IMG/VR virus record: IMGVR_UViG_3300022700_000069
Coordinates: 1-64,000 of that record
Reading direction: 5' to 3' (one strand)
Source: a virus
DNA: 64,000 nt
Part shown: positions 1,450-47,470 of the stretch, one piece after another
How the letters are laid out: each line of letters starts with the position of its first letter
Position numbering within the stretch: position 1 is the stretch's first letter
Program-made: the position numbers and the translations under genes
The notes under the pieces: generated by a model
The model's database searches: none
Seen by the model: only the letters and a program-made list of their open reading frames with translations
Told to the model about the DNA's origin: nothing

Positions 1450-4400
1450 ATGGCAAATAATAAAGACAAACGAACAGTATATCAAAATTTAAATAGATTT
1501 TTTAATTTAGATGGTTTTGGTTTTGCACCAATTCAACATAATCAAGATAACAATAAAGTTGTTATAAAGGGTAATTCTCCAGAAGATATTAAAAGAAAGG
1601 GACTGGAAATTGAACAACGAAAGAAAATTCAAGATAAATATTTTCGTACAACTGATAGAGGTTTTCAAAAAGCATTGCAATATGAAGCAGCAAGACTTCC
1701 AGCTTATATTGATTATGAAGGAATGGAATATTATCCAATAATTTCATCAGCATTAGATTTATTTATGGAAGAAGCAACTACTATTGGTTCAAATGGTAAA
1801 ATGTTAAATATTTATTCTAATAAAGATAGAATTAAATATTTATTAGAAGAATTTTTTTATGATATTCTAAATGTTAATGTTAATCTACCATTTTGGACAA
1901 GAAATGTTGCCAAATACGGTGATAATTTTGTATTATTATATGGTGAAAGAAAAAAAGGAATTACCCATGTAAAACAAATGGTTAATTATGAAGTAGAAAG
2001 GTTTGAAAGAATACAAAAGGGTAAACCAGTAGTTAAATTTAAAGAAAGAATGACTGGTGATGAATTTAATGTATTTGAAGTAGCACATTTTAGATTATTG
2101 GGTGATGATAAATATCTACCATATGGTTCATCTGTCTTAAATAAAGTTCGTAGAGTATTTCGTCAACTTGTTATGGGTGAAGATGCAATGTTAACATATC
2201 GTATTATACGTGCTGGTGAGAAAAAGGTGTTTAAAATTGATGTTGGTAATATTGATGAAGAAGATATTGAAGATTACATCTATAAGGTTGCAACTAAATT
2301 TAAAAAATCAATGGAAGTATCACCAAATGATGGTCAAATTGATTATAGATTTAATATATTAGGCAATGATGAAGATTATTTTATACCTGTTAGAAATGCT
2401 AATGTTGAAACAGGTATTGATACACTTCCGGGGGCATGTTTATCGCTTGATACAAAAATTAATCTATTAGATGGTAGAAGTTTATCGCTTAATAATATTA
2501 TAAATGAATATGAATCTGGAAAACAATTATGGTCATATTCAATAAATCCTCAATCTGGAAATATTGTACCGGGTAAAATAACATGGGCAGGGGTTACCAG
2601 AAAAAATGCACAAGTATTAAAATTAACTTTAGATAATGGTGAAACTATTACTTGTACCCCTGATCATAAATTTCCAACAAAATATAATGGAATTAAAGAA
2701 GCAAAAGATTTATTAATTGGTGAATCAATGTGGTCATTTAATAAAAAATTTAAAAAAATTAAGGGTCAGGGAAATGATTATGAAATGATATATGACCATT
2801 CTATTAATGATTGGGTTTATACTCATAGAATAGTGAATGATTATATTAATGATAAACCAATAAATAATTTAATTAGACATCATAAAGATTTTAATAGATA
2901 TAATAATAATCCAGAAAATATTGAAAGATTAACAATAAAAGAGTATTTAAAGAAACATAATGAACAAGCACTAGTTGGTGGGTTGGCATTTAAAGAAAAA
3001 TATAACACAAATGAAAAATTTAGAAAAAAAATTAATAATGTGTTAAATGCTGCAAGAACTAAATATCATAATAAATTAAAAATTGATGATAATTTTAGAA
3101 ATAATGTAATAAAAAAACAATCAAAATCAATTAATAATTCAGTAAAATCAAGAGATATAGCAATTGAAACTTTTAATGACAATCCAAATAGAGAATCAAT
3201 TCTTAATGAAAGAGGAAAATCTATATCAAAAACAAAATCATTAAAAGAAAATAGAATAAAACAATCTAAAATTACTAAACAACAATGGAAAAATAGTAAT
3301 TTAAGAGAAATTGTGATAGAAAAGCAATCAATTAAATACTCTAATAAATTACTTGATTTATTAATAAGTTACATTGATGAATATAATAGGATTGATTTAA
3401 TTTTAGAAAATAAAATCAATATCGAAAATTCTGAATGGTTAAATGAATTTAACCGAATTAATGAAAATAATAAACAATTAAAAAAGATGTCTCTTATTAC
3501 TAGAAATAACATTGATAAAATGTTAAAATATTTTGGTTATTCTAATTGGAGAGATTTTAAATCAAAAATTCCCTATTATAATCATAAGATTGTTTCAATC
3601 GAATGGTTAGAAGAAAAACAAGATACAGGTACAATCACTATTGATGGTCAAGAAAATTTACATAATTTTCATAATTTCGCATTAAATTCTGGAATTTTTA
3701 CAAATAATTCTAATCTTGATCAAATACAAGATATTGAATATTTACGTGATAATTTATTTACTGGTCTTGGTATACCAAAACCGTTTTTATCATTTCAAGA
3801 TGCTGCTGGTGGTGGTAAAAATATGGCTCAATATGATATAAGATTTGCTAAAAAGATTAATAGAATTCAACAATCAATGATTCAAGAATTGAATAAAATG
3901 GCAATGATCCATTTATATTTATTGGGTTATGATAAAGAAGATATTGGTAATTTTACTTTAACATTAACCAATCCATCTACACAACAAGAAATGCTTAAAG
4001 CAGAATTGTTTAGAGAAAAATCACAAGTGTATACTGAACTTACACGTGGTGAAAATGGTATCGCTGCTATGTCACATACAAAAGCAAAACGTATTGTTTT
4101 CAATATGAGTGATCGTGAAATTGTTAATGATCTTAAACAACAAAAAATGGAAAAAGTTGTTCAACAAGAACTTGCTGATGCACCAGTTGTTATTAAACAA
4201 TCTGGCATATATTCTGATATTGATAAAAAATATGGTGAACCTGAATTAGCTGGTGCAGCAACTGGTAGTACTGGTAATGAAGAAGGTGAAGGTGGTGGAA
4301 TTCCACCAGAAGGTGGTGCTGCAGAAGGAGGTGAAACTCCTGAAGGTGGTGAAGGGGAAGTACCATTTCAATCACCAACTGATTTACCACCAATCGAAGC

Positions 4401-37557: not shown

Positions 37558-40332
37558 ATGGCAGAATTTGTATTTACTTCACCCGGAGTGAAATTTAAAG
37601 AACGTGATTTAACATTCGTAACACGTAATGTGGGTATAACAACATTAGGTCTTGTAGGTGAAACTATAAAAGGACCTGCATTTGAACCTGTTTTTATACA
37701 AGATGCAGGACAATTCAGAGATAGATTTGGCACTCAAAGAATAAAAAAGTTTCCAAATGGAAAACTTAAATATGAATTACCTTATGTAGCTAATGCATAT
37801 TTAGAAGAATCTAGTCAATTATGGGTAACTAGAGTATTAGGTCTTTCTGGATATGATGCTGGTAAAGCATGGGCAATAACATTGAGTGCTGGTGTCGATC
37901 CATCTACAACTGGTGAAACTACTTCAACAACAGGCACAACTGGATTTACTAATAATGTATTTTTAGGTAATACTATATATGAAACTGGTGATACTGGTTC
38001 AACATTTACTGGATTCACAAAAATAAATGATACTGAATTTGAAGGTGATTTAATTGAATTTACAGCAACCACATACAGTGCTAGTACTGGTAGTGGTACT
38101 GTCTTAACTAGAACAACTACATTAACAGGTACTTCATATTCTGATTATGAAGGAATGGTATTAGCTAAAATAAGAAGTAGAGGATATGTACAAGATATTG
38201 TAAATGAATCATCAGATACAATATTTGACACTGATCTTTTAACAATATCTGGTAATACTACTAATTCAGGTGTGGGTAATTTATTTGGTAAATTTACATT
38301 AAATGCATCTAAACCAACCGATCCTGATGATATTTCTGAAAATTATTTAGTAACATTAGACCCAAATGCTAGTTCATTTATATCGAATGTTGTTGGTGAT
38401 GAACCAAAAGATAAAAATACTAAAATCTGGATAGAAGCAATTTTTCCTGATTTAATTAAAAAATTAGATGCTGATGGAATTGGTTATGGTATTAATACTG
38501 AATTAATTGAAGCAACATCTAATATATATACTGATTATAAAACTGGTTTTAAAACACCTGAAACACCTTGGGTTGTATCACAACTTATGGGTAGTGAAAT
38601 TAACAGATTATTTAAATTTATATCAATATCTGATGGTGACTCAGCTAATGAAGAAATTAAAATAAGTATAACTAATATTAGACCAGATACATTAGAATTT
38701 GATGTAATTATTCGAGATTTTTATGATACTGATTCAGAACAAACAATACTTGAATCATTTTCAAGATGTTCATTAATTGAGGGTAGAACTAATTTTATTG
38801 GACAAAGAATTGGTACATCAGATGGTGAATATGATTTACAAAGTAATTATATAATGATTGAATTAGCTGATGAAATACCACAAACAGCATTTCCTGCTGG
38901 TTTTGAAGGATATCATTTAAATAAATGGTCATCTAATATCACAGGTGATGAAAGTAATGAAGGTGTTACTCCTAAATTATTTTATAAAACACAATATAAT
39001 CAAAATGAAAGATTAAATAGAGTATATTTAGGTATTTCAGAAAATGGTTATGACGGTGATGGTCTTGTTGGAAATGGTATAAATCAAAATATTTTTAATT
39101 TTAATGGTTGGGAAAATGGCGGTGATAATGTTATTAGTGCTTATACTAAAACTAAAGGTTTCCATATGGATTCTGGTGCAACTGGTAATTATAAAGATGG
39201 TAATACTATTATTGGTGAATTTGAAACTGGTGCTGGTCCATTTGGTAATATAAATGATGTTATTGATCCAACTGATACATATAATGACATACAATCAAGA
39301 AAATTTACATTAGCACCTTCAGGTGGTTTTGATGGATGGGATGTTAATAGAAATACAAGATCAAATATTGATGGATTTCAACAAACAGGTATTTTTGATG
39401 GTGTTGATCCTAATATCACACCTAAAAATGATCTTCAAGCATGGGAAACTGCTGTTAATACTTTTGCAAATCCTGAAGAAGTAACTATTAACTTATTTGC
39501 AACACCGGGACTAAATTGGAGTGATAATAATATATTAGTTCAAAATACATTAAATATGATTGAAAATGAAAGAACTGATACATTATATATTATTGATACT
39601 CCTGATGTTGATATTCCAAGAACAATTGGTGAAACTAAAAAAGATGTTCTTGCAGCAGAAGATATTACTGATCTTATTAATGTTGCTGCACTTGATTCAA
39701 GTTATGGTGCAACATATTTTCCATATATTCAAATTAGGGATACTGAAAATAATGTTAATGTATATCTTCCACCAACAGGTGAAGTTGTAAAAGCAATGGC
39801 ATATACTGATAACGTTAAATTTCCTTGGTTTGCACCTGCTGGTTTACAACGTGGTGTTACTGATGCAAGAAAATCAAAATATAAATTATCTCTTGATGCC
39901 CGTGATATCTTATATGAAGGTAGAATTAATCCAATGGCTGATTTTGCTGATTCTGGTACTGCAATATTTGGTCAAAAGACACTTCAAGTAAGAGAAAGTG
40001 CACTTGATAGAATTAATGTTCGTAGATTATTACTTCAAATTAAAGTATTAATTTCTAATATTGCAACAAGACTTGTTTTTGAACAAAATGATCAGGCAAC
40101 TATTGATCAGTTTTTATCAAAAGCAACACCAGTTCTTGATACAATTAAAAGAGAACGTGGTTTACAAGAATTTAGAATTAAAATGGATGATAGTAATAAT
40201 ACACCTGAAACAAGGGATAGAAATGAACTTTATGGTGAAATATTCCTTAAACCTACTCGTGCTGTAGAGTTTATCGGCATTACCTTTACCATTACACCGT
40301 CAGGTGCATCTTTTGATGAGGCTGGTGCGTAA
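37558..40332 (+). CDS. gp18: Tail sheath protein (gp18-like)
   Basis: SPGVKFKERD, GETIKGPAFEP, PWFAPAGLQRG, LYEGRINP, GQKTLQ, LDRINVRRLL, FEQND, LKPTRAVEFI. Confidence 0.96.
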   Translation: MAEFVFTSPGVKFKERDLTFVTRNVGITTLGLVGETIKGPAFEPVFIQDAGQFRDRFGTQRIKKFPNGKLKYELPYVANAYLEESSQLWVTRVLGLSGYDAGKAWAITLSAGVDPSTTGETTSTTGTTGFTNNVFLGNTIYETGDTGSTFTGFTKINDTEFEGDLIEFTATTYSASTGSGTVLTRTTTLTGTSYSDYEGMVLAKIRSRGYVQDIVNESSDTIFDTDLLTISGNTTNSGVGNLFGKFTLNASKPTDPDDISENYLVTLDPNASSFISNVVGDEPKDKNTKIWIEAIFPDLIKKLDADGIGYGINTELIEATSNIYTDYKTGFKTPETPWVVSQLMGSEINRLFKFISISDGDSANEEIKISITNIRPDTLEFDVIIRDFYDTDSEQTILESFSRCSLIEGRTNFIGQRIGTSDGEYDLQSNYIMIELADEIPQTAFPAGFEGYHLNKWSSNITGDESNEGVTPKLFYKTQYNQNERLNRVYLGISENGYDGDGLVGNGINQNIFNFNGWENGGDNVISAYTKTKGFHMDSGATGNYKDGNTIIGEFETGAGPFGNINDVIDPTDTYNDIQSRKFTLAPSGGFDGWDVNRNTRSNIDGFQQTGIFDGVDPNITPKNDLQAWETAVNTFANPEEVTINLFATPGLNWSDNNILVQNTLNMIENERTDTLYIIDTPDVDIPRTIGETKKDVLAAEDITDLINVAALDSSYGATYFPYIQIRDTENNVNVYLPPTGEVVKAMAYTDNVKFPWFAPAGLQRGVTDARKSKYKLSLDARDILYEGRINPMADFADSGTAIFGQKTLQVRESALDRINVRRLLLQIKVLISNIATRLVFEQNDQATIDQFLSKATPVLDTIKRERGLQEFRIKMDDSNNTPETRDRNELYGEIFLKPTRAVEFIGITFTITPSGASFDEAGA

Positions 40333-40373: not shown

Positions 40374-42011
40374 TTATGGTATTAATTCATATTTCTTCAA
40401 TCCACAATCATATATTCTAGGCAGATTATTATCTAACATTTCTTTATGTTCTGTTTTATTTGTAATACCCAATTTATTTTTTCTAAAATTAAATTTATGA
40501 TATTTTGTTATATTTCTATAATCGCAATACCAATAACTTGGTTTAATATCACCCTTAAACTCAAACCCAATTTTTTGATATAAATTACCATTACTATATC
40601 TTCTATCTGCAAATGTTATGATTTTTAATGGTTTATATTTTTTAATAAAAAAATTCAAAAGTTTACTAGCACCACCAATAACATTAGTATTTTTTTTATT
40701 TGAAAATCTATTTAATGTATAATTATTTTTATATTTTTTAAACCCCATAACTGAAACCAATGTATTATTATAATATAGTCCAATTTTTACACTACTATTA
40801 GTTTCACCAAGAATGTGATTTTCATTTAAAAACGACTTATATTCATTAACATTAATTTTATAAATTTTACACTTTCTACCATATATTTTATTTGGCGTTA
40901 AATTTAATTTATTCAATAATATCGATTTTACAATCTCATTTTTGTATACCCATTCATCTTCAAATATTTGAATTAATTGAATACCCTGTTTATTACAAAA
41001 ATTCAATTTATTTAAATGATATTTATTATCCTTAAAATATTCAGAATGCCAATATAAACCATTAAATTCAATAGCAATTTTATAATCTGGTAAATAAAAA
41101 TCTAATTCATAGGGTTTTATTATTTTTTTATCGTTTCTCTGATATTTAATATTTTGTTCATCTAAAAATTTTGATATCTCTAATTCATAATTAGAAATAT
41201 TTGGTGAATATGGTAAATATTTAACTGATAATTCTCTATTTTCGTTTAATCTTATAATTAATAATGATCTTGGAATATCAAATATATGACCATCCGGATG
41301 TTTTATTGTTAATACATTATCATGGTTAATACTAATTAATTCATATTTCTTTTTTTCTAATCTATTTTTTAATTTATCATTTAATGTATCATAGAATTTA
41401 ATTCTATTATTATAATTCTCGTCTTTATAAATTTCTTTTTTTGTTTGTTTTATTTTATTATAGTTATTATAATTTTCATTATTATATTTTTCTTTTTTTG
41501 TCTTTTTAACTTTATTATTAATAATTTCCCAATTATTCCAATATTTATTATTTCTATTTTCCTGTATTTTTTTTTGAAAATTTGTTAATTTAAATAGGCT
41601 ATCAACACCATATTTATTCTTTAATACTTTTTTACTTTTATTAATTCGTTTTTCTTTATTTTCTGGTCTACTATTCCATTTTTTTCTACATTTTTCAGAA
41701 CAAAAATTACGTTTATATTTTTTACGTTCTTCAAATTCATTACCACATTCTAAACAATATCTTTTTTCTATTGCTTTTTTATGTTTAGCATTTGCAGAAC
41801 ACTTATATGAACAATATTTTTTATTTTCTTTAATTTTTGAAGTAAATTCATTACCACAATTTTCACATGGTTTAGTAATATAATATTTCAAGTCTTGTTT
41901 TTTTCTTAATTCCCGTTTACAATCAGATGAACAAGTCTTTTTTTCTTTACCCTTTCTTACTTCAAATTCATTACCACAATTTTTACATATTAATTTTATA
42001 AATGTTGCCAT
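40374..42011 (-). CDS. Hef-like endonuclease: three Zn-ribbon repeats, Vsr/DUF559-like nuclease, GNAT/Mom-like domain
   Basis: CxxCGNEF..CSxxC three times; YELDFY..AIEFNGLYWHS..IFEDEW; VIGGASKLL..TFADRRYSNGNLYQKIGF..IYDCG. Confidence 0.82.
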   Translation of the reverse strand: MATFIKLICKNCGNEFEVRKGKEKKTCSSDCKRELRKKQDLKYYITKPCENCGNEFTSKIKENKKYCSYKCSANAKHKKAIEKRYCLECGNEFEERKKYKRNFCSEKCRKKWNSRPENKEKRINKSKKVLKNKYGVDSLFKLTNFQKKIQENRNNKYWNNWEIINNKVKKTKKEKYNNENYNNYNKIKQTKKEIYKDENYNNRIKFYDTLNDKLKNRLEKKKYELISINHDNVLTIKHPDGHIFDIPRSLLIIRLNENRELSVKYLPYSPNISNYELEISKFLDEQNIKYQRNDKKIIKPYELDFYLPDYKIAIEFNGLYWHSEYFKDNKYHLNKLNFCNKQGIQLIQIFEDEWVYKNEIVKSILLNKLNLTPNKIYGRKCKIYKINVNEYKSFLNENHILGETNSSVKIGLYYNNTLVSVMGFKKYKNNYTLNRFSNKKNTNVIGGASKLLNFFIKKYKPLKIITFADRRYSNGNLYQKIGFEFKGDIKPSYWYCDYRNITKYHKFNFRKNKLGITNKTEHKEMLDNNLPRIYDCGLKKYELIP

Positions 42012-42495: not shown

Positions 42496-42984
42496 ATGGC
42501 AGAACTAATTAGAGGAATACCTTTTGAATATGAACCGAAACGAACTAATAGATTCTTTGCAGAATTTTCAGATGAATTAGGTATTGAAGTTTGGAAGGTA
42601 CAAAAATTTAAAAGACCAACAATGAAAATAAATTCAATTGAAATTCCATTTGTCAACCAACAAAATTATGTTGCTGGTAGATATACTTGGGATACAATGG
42701 ATATTACATTTCTTGATCCAATAGGTCCTTCAACATCTCAACAATTAATGGAATGGGTTCGATTACATGCAGAATCTCTTACTGGTAGAATGGGATATGC
42801 TGCTGGATATAAGAAAAATATTCTACTTAAAGCATTAGACCCAACCGGAATTGAAGTTGAAAAATGGTTTATTGAACAAGCAATGATTACAAATATTGAC
42901 TTTGGTGATAATGATTATACTACTGATGATTTAACGAATATTACATTAACAATACAACCTTGGAGATGTATACTCAATCTCTAA
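42496..42984 (+). CDS. gp19: Tail tube protein (gp19-like)
   Basis: YEPKRTNRF, YVAGRYTWDTMDITFLDPI, LDPTGIEVEKW; near the sheath gene; late motif at 42453. Confidence 0.88.
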   Translation: MAELIRGIPFEYEPKRTNRFFAEFSDELGIEVWKVQKFKRPTMKINSIEIPFVNQQNYVAGRYTWDTMDITFLDPIGPSTSQQLMEWVRLHAESLTGRMGYAAGYKKNILLKALDPTGIEVEKWFIEQAMITNIDFGDNDYTTDDLTNITLTIQPWRCILNL

Positions 42985-43010
42985 TAATTGTAATTTTAAA
43001 TTAAAATATA

Positions 43011-43040
43011 ATAAGCCATTCATTTATTTGAATGGCTTAT
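43011..43040. terminator. Hairpin terminator between convergent genes
   Basis: ataagccattca-tttatt-tgaatggcttat. Confidence 0.8.
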
Positions 43041-43241
43041 TTATTTAAATTTACAACCATCTTGAGTTATAATAAAATCAATATTAATTTTTTTGATTGT
43101 TTTTTGGGGTATAATAGTTTTATCAATTATTAATTTACGATCATTAATATTAATTTCAAAATCATCAATAATTTTTAGTTTTTTTAAATTTAATAATCTA
43201 TTATTTAAATTAATGTAAAAATTTGCATCATCATTTGTCAT
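43041..43241 (-). CDS. 66-aa stand-alone paralog of the tail-sheath C-terminal domain
   Basis: Aligns by eye to the last approximately 75 aa of the sheath; TAATG-coupled to the upstream nuclease. Confidence 0.62.
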   Translation of the reverse strand: MTNDDANFYINLNNRLLNLKKLKIIDDFEININDRKLIIDKTIIPQKTIKKINIDFIITQDGCKFK

Positions 43242-44020
43242 TAGTTTAAAGTATTTATTCTTTCCCTAATAATTTGTTCAACAAAAAATTTTCTATCCTG
43301 TCCTTCAATAATTTTAAAATTATCATTATTGTGTGACACCCAAATTAAATATGATTTACCTAATTTTAATGAAGTATTTTTTTCAATTATATATTTATAC
43401 ATATCCATTTGAAGTGAATATAATTCTAAATCACAATCCTCTAACATATTAAGATTTCCCAATAAATTTTGATGAGGATTATTTTTATAAAATGCTTTAT
43501 TTGTTTTCCAATCCCAAATTTGAAATTCGTTTTCTTTTACATTATAAAAGAGAAGATCAACCATTCCAGCAATTTTTGATTCTTTATCATATATAACAAG
43601 TTCTGTTTTAACCGGAATTAATTTATCTTTTGATATTTGTAAAAATTTATCAACGTGTTTTTTTGTTTTTAAATATTCAAAATATATAGGATCAAATCCA
43701 AATTCATTATAAATTTCTTGTTGTGGATATTCAAAAACTTTATTTAATAACGCATTTTCAGCATAATCATGTATTATTGATCCTTTCATTGTACCCTTTT
43801 TATTAATGAAATCCCATGCTCTTTTTATTTTCCATTGTGGTACATTAAATTCATTTGCTTTATAATCAGACCAATAATTTTTATCAAATTCTTCTTGATA
43901 TTTATGAATTAATGTTGTAACTGAAATATATTCATTGCCATCTAAATAATATTTATGAGGTTCATCATAATATTTTATATCATTAAATTTTTGAAAAATT
44001 TCAAATGGTATGTTATTCAT
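43241..44020 (-). CDS. PD-(D/E)xK exonuclease
   Basis: HKYYL..SVTTLI, GSIIHDYAE, AGMVDLL, IWDWKTN, YSLQMDMY; TAATTTTG at 44025-44032 (-). Confidence 0.82.
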   Translation of the reverse strand: MNNIPFEIFQKFNDIKYYDEPHKYYLDGNEYISVTTLIHKYQEEFDKNYWSDYKANEFNVPQWKIKRAWDFINKKGTMKGSIIHDYAENALLNKVFEYPQQEIYNEFGFDPIYFEYLKTKKHVDKFLQISKDKLIPVKTELVIYDKESKIAGMVDLLFYNVKENEFQIWDWKTNKAFYKNNPHQNLLGNLNMLEDCDLELYSLQMDMYKYIIEKNTSLKLGKSYLIWVSHNNDNFKIIEGQDRKFFVEQIIRERINTLN

Positions 44021-44040: not shown

Positions 44041-44934
44041 TTAATTAATTACAATATTATTTTGAACAATATTTTCAAGATTAATATTTTCTAAATCATT
44101 AATAATTGAATTTTTATCAGCAGAAATACCTGAATATCCATGAATATGAGCGATAATTGCTTCTCTAAATATATTTAATGCTTCAATTAAAACATCTGCT
44201 CTTGCTAAAGGATGTCCATCATCAAAAATTCGAGTACGATCATCTATATTTAATCTTGCTGCTTTAAATTTTGGGTTACCGGAGTGTGATATTAATGCAA
44301 TTTTATCACTTAATACAACAGTATTACTATAATATTCATCTTCGTCTTCTTTTTGATCAAATGATAAAGTAATAGCTGCTGGATTTTTAATATTTAATTT
44401 AAGAGGGTTATCATTTTCATGTTTACCAGCACGAAATTCAAGTTGATTATTTCTTAAAATTACATCAGTATTTACTCGACCAACAATACCAATTTCATCT
44501 TTTTGAGGAAATACACCTTGGGCATCAGGATATGTAGACGGTGCTGTTTCAGGTGCTGTTAAACCCATATTAGTTGTTGAAAGTGCTGTATATATTGAAT
44601 CATATTCAACCTTATGTGGTTGTGAAATAATACTACCCATCCAAAATCGACTTCTTTGTGGATATTTAATATCTTCTATAAAAATTCTAACCATTTCACC
44701 AACTTTGGGAAATACATGAAAAAATTTGGGTAATAGGGGGTAACAATATGGTAAATCATTTACATCAGTTATTTTATTATCAAAACCTAATATTTTTACT
44801 TTTATTCTACCACCATCTGTTGGGTCATCAATTGACAACACTTCACCATAATAAATATTACGTGTATTAGTAACATCATCAGTAGTTTTTTCATATAATT
44901 TACTTGTTTGTAAATATTTTTTATTTAATGACAT
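44041..44934 (-). CDS. Baseplate central spike (gp5/gpV-like OB fold)
   Basis: GEVLSIDDPTDGGRIKVKI..PKVGEMVRI; C-terminal HIH metal-binding tip motif. Confidence 0.8.
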   Translation of the reverse strand: MSLNKKYLQTSKLYEKTTDDVTNTRNIYYGEVLSIDDPTDGGRIKVKILGFDNKITDVNDLPYCYPLLPKFFHVFPKVGEMVRIFIEDIKYPQRSRFWMGSIISQPHKVEYDSIYTALSTTNMGLTAPETAPSTYPDAQGVFPQKDEIGIVGRVNTDVILRNNQLEFRAGKHENDNPLKLNIKNPAAITLSFDQKEDEDEYYSNTVVLSDKIALISHSGNPKFKAARLNIDDRTRIFDDGHPLARADVLIEALNIFREAIIAHIHGYSGISADKNSIINDLENINLENIVQNNIVIN

Positions 44935-47432: not shown

Positions 47433-47470
47433 AATTATATTTATTTTATAATAAATACATTTGACATTAA

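Follow-up and report, generated by a model that had tools for sequence, protein, structure and literature searches.

Myophage tails, tailocins, eCIS and T6SS all polymerize their sheaths through an exchange of strands. Strands of the sheath form four-stranded "handshake" sheets that lock the rings together; a gp25-type initiator imitates the inner domain of the sheath for the first ring, and at the last ring the site left open is occupied by the C-terminal strand or hairpin of a terminator (PMC10457771, PMC13450770). In T4 gp18, domain IV comprises residues 1-24 and 510-659 (PMC3004832). A first-pass annotation of the viral DNA described here had ascribed this polymerization role, and a likeness to gp25, to the sheath region of which it thought a 66-codon ORF to be a copy, and the literature bears it out on both points (PMC10457771, PMC13450770). 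Here we follow up that ORF, which we call the mini-gene, and its product, the mini-protein. The natural proteins known to us to plug the handshake or to seed it are gp25/TssE and the terminators. In the literature that we searched, which covers part of the journals, we found no description of stand-alone sheath-handshake mini-proteins.

The mini-gene lies in a 102-kb viral record, estimated to be 34% complete, whose source is an uncultured T4-like giant phage. The window, by which we mean the whole 64,000-nucleotide stretch of this record that was analyzed, has a G+C content of about 24% and a tail module of T4-like type. The features of the locus are collected in the table below. The mini-gene is packed tightly against its neighbors on both sides: its ATG overlaps the stop codon of the exonuclease gene as TAATG, in keeping with the suggested translational coupling, and the terminator stem ends at the first base of its own stop codon. 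The exonuclease gene itself sits inside a late baseplate operon, an unusual place for a nuclease, and this position is kept in all of the approximately 75 fetched relatives whose locus reaches that far (56-89% identity).

Features of the mini-gene locus, with coordinates in the window
Feature	Coordinates	Strand	Evidence and remarks
Mini-gene (ORF66)	43041..43241	(-)	66 codons plus TAA stop; final gene of the leftward operon
Predicted helix, mini-protein residues 3-21	43179..43235	(-)	AF2; lines up with the final sheath helix, no significant sequence match
Sheath-like part, mini-protein residues 21-66	43044..43181	(-)	hhalign; four beta-strands, including the counterpart of the sheath C-terminal arm
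PD-(D/E)XK exonuclease gene	43241..44020	(-)	phrog_298 at 6e-21; PF12705
Baseplate-hub-like gene	44041-44934	(-)	
Presumed late-promoter motif GTATTTATWWWAAA	47445..47458	(-)	Nearest upstream copy on the mini-gene strand
Bidirectional terminator hairpin	43010..43041	.	13 bp stem; common to the tube gene and the mini-gene operon
Tail tube gene	42496..42984	(+)	phrog_4542 at 1.8e-25; convergent with the mini-gene
101-aa ORF			Listed between the homing-endonuclease gene and the tube gene
Homing-endonuclease gene	40374-42011	(-)	545 aa; phrog_3339, Vsr-like; between the sheath and tube genes
Tail sheath gene, T4 gp18 type	37558..40332	(+)	924 aa; phrog_23 at 5.6e-64; PF17482 at residues 814-913
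Sheath residues 866-921, homologous to the mini-protein	40153..40320	(+)	hhalign, HMM

The ORF at 43041-43241(-) is a real gene. A tblastn search of 89 related loci detected a 67-aa homologue with 49% identity, directly after the exonuclease gene of L015, and following this match an HMM found a 60-aa homologue in L065. L090-92 and L094 added two more genomic contexts. P0003, P0005 and P0006 came from a search of 1.84 billion protein representatives and P0007 from a profile search, with six clusters in all among 5.8 billion proteins. Together these searches yielded six further distinct homologues of 60-85 aa (P0003, P0005, P0006, P0007, P0008 and L091:4001-4189), and thus seven distinct sequences. 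Synteny is identical in all five lineages for which surrounding DNA is available (the window, L015, L065, L090-92 and L094): the mini-gene follows a PD-(D/E)XK exonuclease gene and faces the tail-tube gene. Its frame is open in each of the five even though nucleotide identity has fallen to 44-61%, and no disrupted copy was seen in any lineage, protein identity to the ORF of the window being 18-49%. Comparison of the window with L015 gave a dN/dS of 0.42/1.87, or about 0.23; because dS is saturated in every other pair, this is a weak measure of selection. Among the homologues, conservation peaks in the last 25 residues, which form the arm-like strands.

The family is otherwise hard to see. No homologue was found by tblastn in 50,697 phage records, neither Pfam nor PHROGs holds a family for the mini-protein or its homologues, and the related-loci search found no relatives of P0005 on viral contigs. 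A profile search detected no fused or longer forms, although this is weak evidence. One additional match from the search of representatives, P0004 (1863 aa, E=3e-8), was judged to be spurious: the match is made up of seven repeated segments aligned to the first half of the window protein, which is rich in N and I, the composition of P0004 is unrelated (rich in V, T and G), and the mini-protein profile found no long relatives. The JGI name of P0003, "DNA-binding Lrp family transcriptional regulator," was also set aside, as it has no support in Pfam.

The first-pass annotation had aligned the mini-protein to the C terminus of the sheath encoded by the same phage, with a gap of about 10 residues. 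When the two proteins were compared by BLASTP, this alignment was not reported, and the best segment fell at the N terminus of the sheath (E=0.044). By Smith-Waterman, the best alignment was exactly the proposed one, gap included (score 43), and shuffling gave p = 0.047 against the whole sheath and p = 0.007 against its last 110 aa. Judged pairwise, the similarity of the mini-protein to its own sheath is therefore marginal. Profile methods were much more decisive. An HMM built without the window sequence picked out sheath residues ~887-920 at E=1.5e-6 among the 427 ORFs of the window, where its next-best match scored about 4 bits. A profile of the homologues aligned by hhalign to sheath C-ends with 94.5% probability (P=8e-8), and to a 16-sequence sheath alignment that included a GC-rich outgroup with 96.3% probability (E=1.9e-9). 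The register, in which mini-protein residues 21-66 correspond to sheath residues 866-921 around a 10-residue gap, confirms the homology as first proposed.

The specificity of the profile points the same way. Across the 102-kb record it matches only the mini-protein itself and the sheath at 40216-40314 (E=4e-6), and when about 90 related loci were translated in all six frames, its matches were confined to true homologues and to the sheath C-ends, all of which it found, without a false positive. In the PDB, T4-type gp18 C-ends account for four of the five best matches (E 0.013-0.037), with profile positions 32-65 falling on residues 617-651 of the 659-residue gp18 chains. The sheath of a GC-rich phage (L097) terminates with the IDFVITPTG motif that the mini-protein homologues themselves carry, and several homologues resemble the sheath end more closely than does the window's own AT-biased copy. 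From these sequence comparisons we conclude that the mini-gene derives from a tail-sheath gene of T4 type, namely from its 3' end. For the first of the two blocks originally aligned, the helix, there is no sequence support before residue 21, although the order of secondary-structure elements agrees. That the resemblance is fortuitous, or that the ORF is not a gene, might be argued from the marginal pairwise scores and from the silence of Pfam and PHROGs; set against the homologues with conserved synteny, a profile specific to sheath C-ends and the independent match to T4 gp18, we regard the chance of this as close to negligible.

A separate similarity was seen at the other end of the sheath. 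The sheath N terminus (EFVFTSPGVKFK, 37558-37600) resembles both the sheath's own C-terminal arm and the end of the mini-protein (DFIITQDGCKFK, 43044-43080(-)), the latter being the BLASTP match at E=0.044. The pattern F-x-[FI]-T-x-x-G-x-x-F seems to be common to both of the arms that pair in the handshake.

To see which part of the sheath is retained, we compared AF2 models of the mini-protein, run on a six-sequence alignment, and of the last 160 residues of the sheath. The mini-protein was predicted (pLDDT 82) to form a helix at residues 3-21 followed by strands at 27-31, 36-40, 56-59 and 62-65; in the sheath segment, a helix at 82-102 is followed by strands at 105-111, 127-135, 142-149 and 152-155. 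The order of these elements is the same in the hhalign register. This comparison with sheath C-terminal domains, which the first-pass annotation had called for, thus agrees in strand order as well as in profile (hhalign 96.3%). Foldseek returned nothing for the mini-protein model against the PDB at E<=0.001. VIA-align against 48,161 chains placed contractile-sheath C-ends in 12 of the 28 best rows, with Z scores of only 2.9-4.3, low values that are expected because the mini-protein has only 66 residues. These sheaths came from P1, phiCD508, KP1, Sf14, pyocin, AFP, PVC, diffocin and the Anabaena and Algoriphagus CIS, and model residues 1-50 aligned with their C-ends. The structural neighbors of P0003 in the ESM Atlas are 84-aa viral clusters with PF17482 or TssC and a gp25/IraD-like cluster; small viral proteins with sheath C-terminal domains therefore exist.

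The original description of the ORF as a copy of the C-terminal domain nevertheless went too far. The ORF represents no more than the final 56-76 sheath residues (866-921, or 846-921 if the helix is counted), and the mini-protein falls short of a complete domain, taken as about 104 PF17482 model positions plus the N-terminal arm. Of sheath domain IV it retains the final helix plus the four beta-strands at the terminus; missing are the N-terminal arm, the remainder of the tube-contacting domain and every outer domain. PF17482 matches only the sheath in the whole record and does not match the mini-protein or any homologue, even at E<=10. Since this model is silent and a counterpart of the N-terminal arm is absent, the mini-protein is a fragment rather than a whole domain. 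Judging from where the alignments end and from the published descriptions, the strands that are kept would correspond to the two-stranded part of the inner domain together with the C-terminal arm.

The distribution check that had been suggested was also run. On a tree of the exonuclease that comprises 57 distinct lineages, 4 carry the mini-gene and about 93% do not. Three of the carriers fall in a single clade of ten, and the window's three nearest relatives do not have it; the nearest of all (L001/L010) has a tube that is 100% identical and a sheath end that is 99% identical. This implies that the mini-gene is an accessory, dispensable gene that is easily gained and lost, or moved. Its absence from the nearest relatives means that any role in tail assembly is non-essential, and its dispensability and repeated loss or movement argue against an essential initiator or cap. 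The earlier proposal of a sheath cap or initiator is accordingly unlikely if an essential component is meant.

The slot between the tube and exonuclease genes is itself variable. In roughly half of about 80 relatives the gap is approximately 60 bp; the others contain 700-1660 bp of cargo which, where tested, consists of homing endonucleases of GIY-YIG/NUMOD3, LAGLIDADG or large Vsr/DUF559-like type. Endonuclease-bearing slots were found at L061:3020-3691, L062:3278-3697, L053:3019-3729, L080:3102-3905, L046:3067-3732, L042:3050-4561, L045:3459-4646 and L016:3025-4599. In L016, an enzyme similar to the product of 40374-42011 occupies this slot instead, and L091 and L094 have no endonuclease insert between sheath and tube. 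L087 carries other genes there, one of 76 aa with Cys pairs (3021-3251(-)) and one of 136 aa (3251-3661(-)), as does L089; these small genes have no Pfam match and appear to be further accessory cargo.

Selfish or hitch-hiking cargo would fit such a homing-endonuclease landing slot equally well. The mini-gene could then be a partial duplication of the sheath gene, carried along by endonuclease-driven recombination and having little or no function of its own. The frequency of GIY-YIG, LAGLIDADG or Vsr/DUF559-type genes in the slot of many relatives fits this idea, as do the lack of the mini-gene in the window's three nearest relatives and its great rarity (6 clusters among 5.8 billion proteins). 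Against this, we found no decayed copies in relatives with tube-exonuclease gaps of about 100-210 bp. The ORF has stayed intact in every lineage despite divergence to 18-49% protein identity, dN is below dS, and conservation is focused on the sheath-like strands. We therefore consider that a mere relic is an unlikely explanation.

We then asked when the mini-protein might be made. The motif GTATTTATWWWAAA is enriched in the window, with 24 matches against 8.35 expected, and it lies 30-45 nt ahead of the starts of the sheath, the tube and many other structural genes; positions include 1418, 4737, 12933, 22825, 34589(-), 37324(-), 37502, 42080, 42453, 47445(-), 52271, 53455 and 56468. It is probably the late promoter of the clade. 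The late motif noted near 47451 by the first-pass annotation is the copy at 47445-47458(-), and it heads a tightly packed operon that runs from 47432 to 43041 and ends at the terminator. Because the mini-gene is the last gene of this operon, which also includes the baseplate-hub gene, the mini-protein is probably produced late and together with the tail proteins. By contrast, the "host-type promoter" that had been assigned to the exonuclease gene found no support: the number of sigma-70-like sites is what chance would give (60 found, 59.7 expected), and the one TAnnTTTG box located 4 nt upstream of the exonuclease ATG is uninformative, since that motif occurs 102 times in the window.

Two other features of expression in this region may be mentioned. 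The homing-endonuclease gene at 40374-42011(-) has a GTATTTAT core about 30 nt upstream of its start, lacking the A-rich tail of the late motif. Shine-Dalgarno-like purine runs are absent before the starts at 37558, 42122, 42496, 44020, 47432 and others; taken with the low G+C content, this may point to a host in which translation does not depend on SD pairing, Bacteroidota being a candidate.

The probable timing bears on another earlier suggestion, that the mini-protein is a decoy, mimicking the sheath end and soaking up a host immune sensor of tail-sheath protein. What speaks for this is no more than that mimicry is a plausible strategy in general and that the gene is accessory in its distribution. 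Late expression would come too late for most abortive-infection sensors, and the locus has no linked anti-defense context, so that a decoy seems to us very unlikely.

Our preferred explanation, to which we give about an even chance of being right, is that the mini-protein docks on sheath handshake sites by strand mimicry late in infection. Its anatomy argues against an ability to polymerize, since it has neither the N-terminal arm nor the remaining parts of the tube-contacting domain nor any outer domain. It would instead dock by beta-sheet augmentation at a free handshake site, and could do so in either of two ways. In one, resembling the tail terminators, its C-terminal strand would be donated to the open platform of a sheath subunit; in the other, resembling gp25, its hairpin would receive free sheath arms. 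Sheath ends might thereby be modulated or stabilized, or unassembled sheath protein might be kept from misassembling.

The same anatomy would also suit a weapon, the remaining use that had been envisaged for the protein. A fragment that has the donor strand and cannot accept the next ring would be a dominant-negative subunit, capping the growing sheaths of co-infecting phages, tailocins or the host T6SS. The retention of arm and hairpin without N-terminal arm and body fits such a cap, and conflict genes typically show just such a patchy, accessory presence within a variable slot. However, sheath C-ends are nearly invariant across the clade, including in the carriers, and so the phage's own sheath would be poisoned too, with no visible discrimination between self and non-self; moreover, the operon layout indicates that the mini-gene shares a transcript with late tail genes of the phage itself. 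An interference function is, in our estimate, improbable.

A natural 66-residue fragment that consists of little more than the handshake strands would offer a ready probe of sheath assembly, and possibly a natural regulator or inhibitor of it. More broadly, the mini-protein and its homologues illustrate that sheath-handshake fragments can hide below the reach of Pfam. We suggest, tentatively and with the expectation that it may well prove wrong, that free-standing sheath-handshake fragments are an undescribed but recurrent class of small phage proteins that would act on sheath assembly by strand mimicry, either capping or chaperoning their own sheath or sabotaging rival phages, tailocins and T6SS, and that the mini-protein and its homologues, at 60-68 aa, are the most minimal, Pfam-invisible form.

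Among described systems, the end of T4 gp18 domain IV (residues about 585-651; PF17482, Phage_sheath_1C) is homologous in sequence and presents its helix and four strands in an identical order, and T4-type sheath ends share with the mini-protein a terminal motif of the type F-x-I-T-P-[ST]-G-x-x-F. Relative to the PF17482 domain, the mini-protein comprises the last third to half, without N-terminal arm, tube-contact helices or outer domains; unlike the sheath domain, it is free-standing, accessory and below detection by the Pfam model. The 84-aa viral clusters of the ESM Atlas (PF17482 or PF17541) are likewise small proteins with the sheath C-terminal region, but the mini-protein is shorter and invisible to Pfam. 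gp25, TssE and Afp9 (PF04965, GPW_gp25) are also small and free-standing, with a fold like that of the sheath inner domain that takes part in handshake sheets. The mini-protein is half their size, is not universal in its clade, and keeps a sheath-type C-terminal arm, which we did not find described for gp25. PF04965 matches neither the mini-protein nor its homologues at E<=10, and nothing in the 102-kb record; as only 34% of the genome is estimated to be covered by this record, the phage may encode its actual gp25 outside it. Outside contractile machines, E. coli IraD has a gp25-like domain (PF04965), in which a handshake-type fold is reused as a small protein-binding module. IraD is a bacterial regulator, and "IraD/Gp25-like" is the name of the ESM Atlas cluster among the neighbors of P0003. 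Finally, the tail terminators (T4 gp15 type, XM1 gp5 and phi92 gp129) fill the open handshake site with a strand that does not come from the sheath, which is the action that we propose for the mini-protein; they are, however, essential, hexameric ring proteins with a fold of their own, whereas the mini-gene is absent from 53 of the 57 lineages and its product is a sheath-like fragment.
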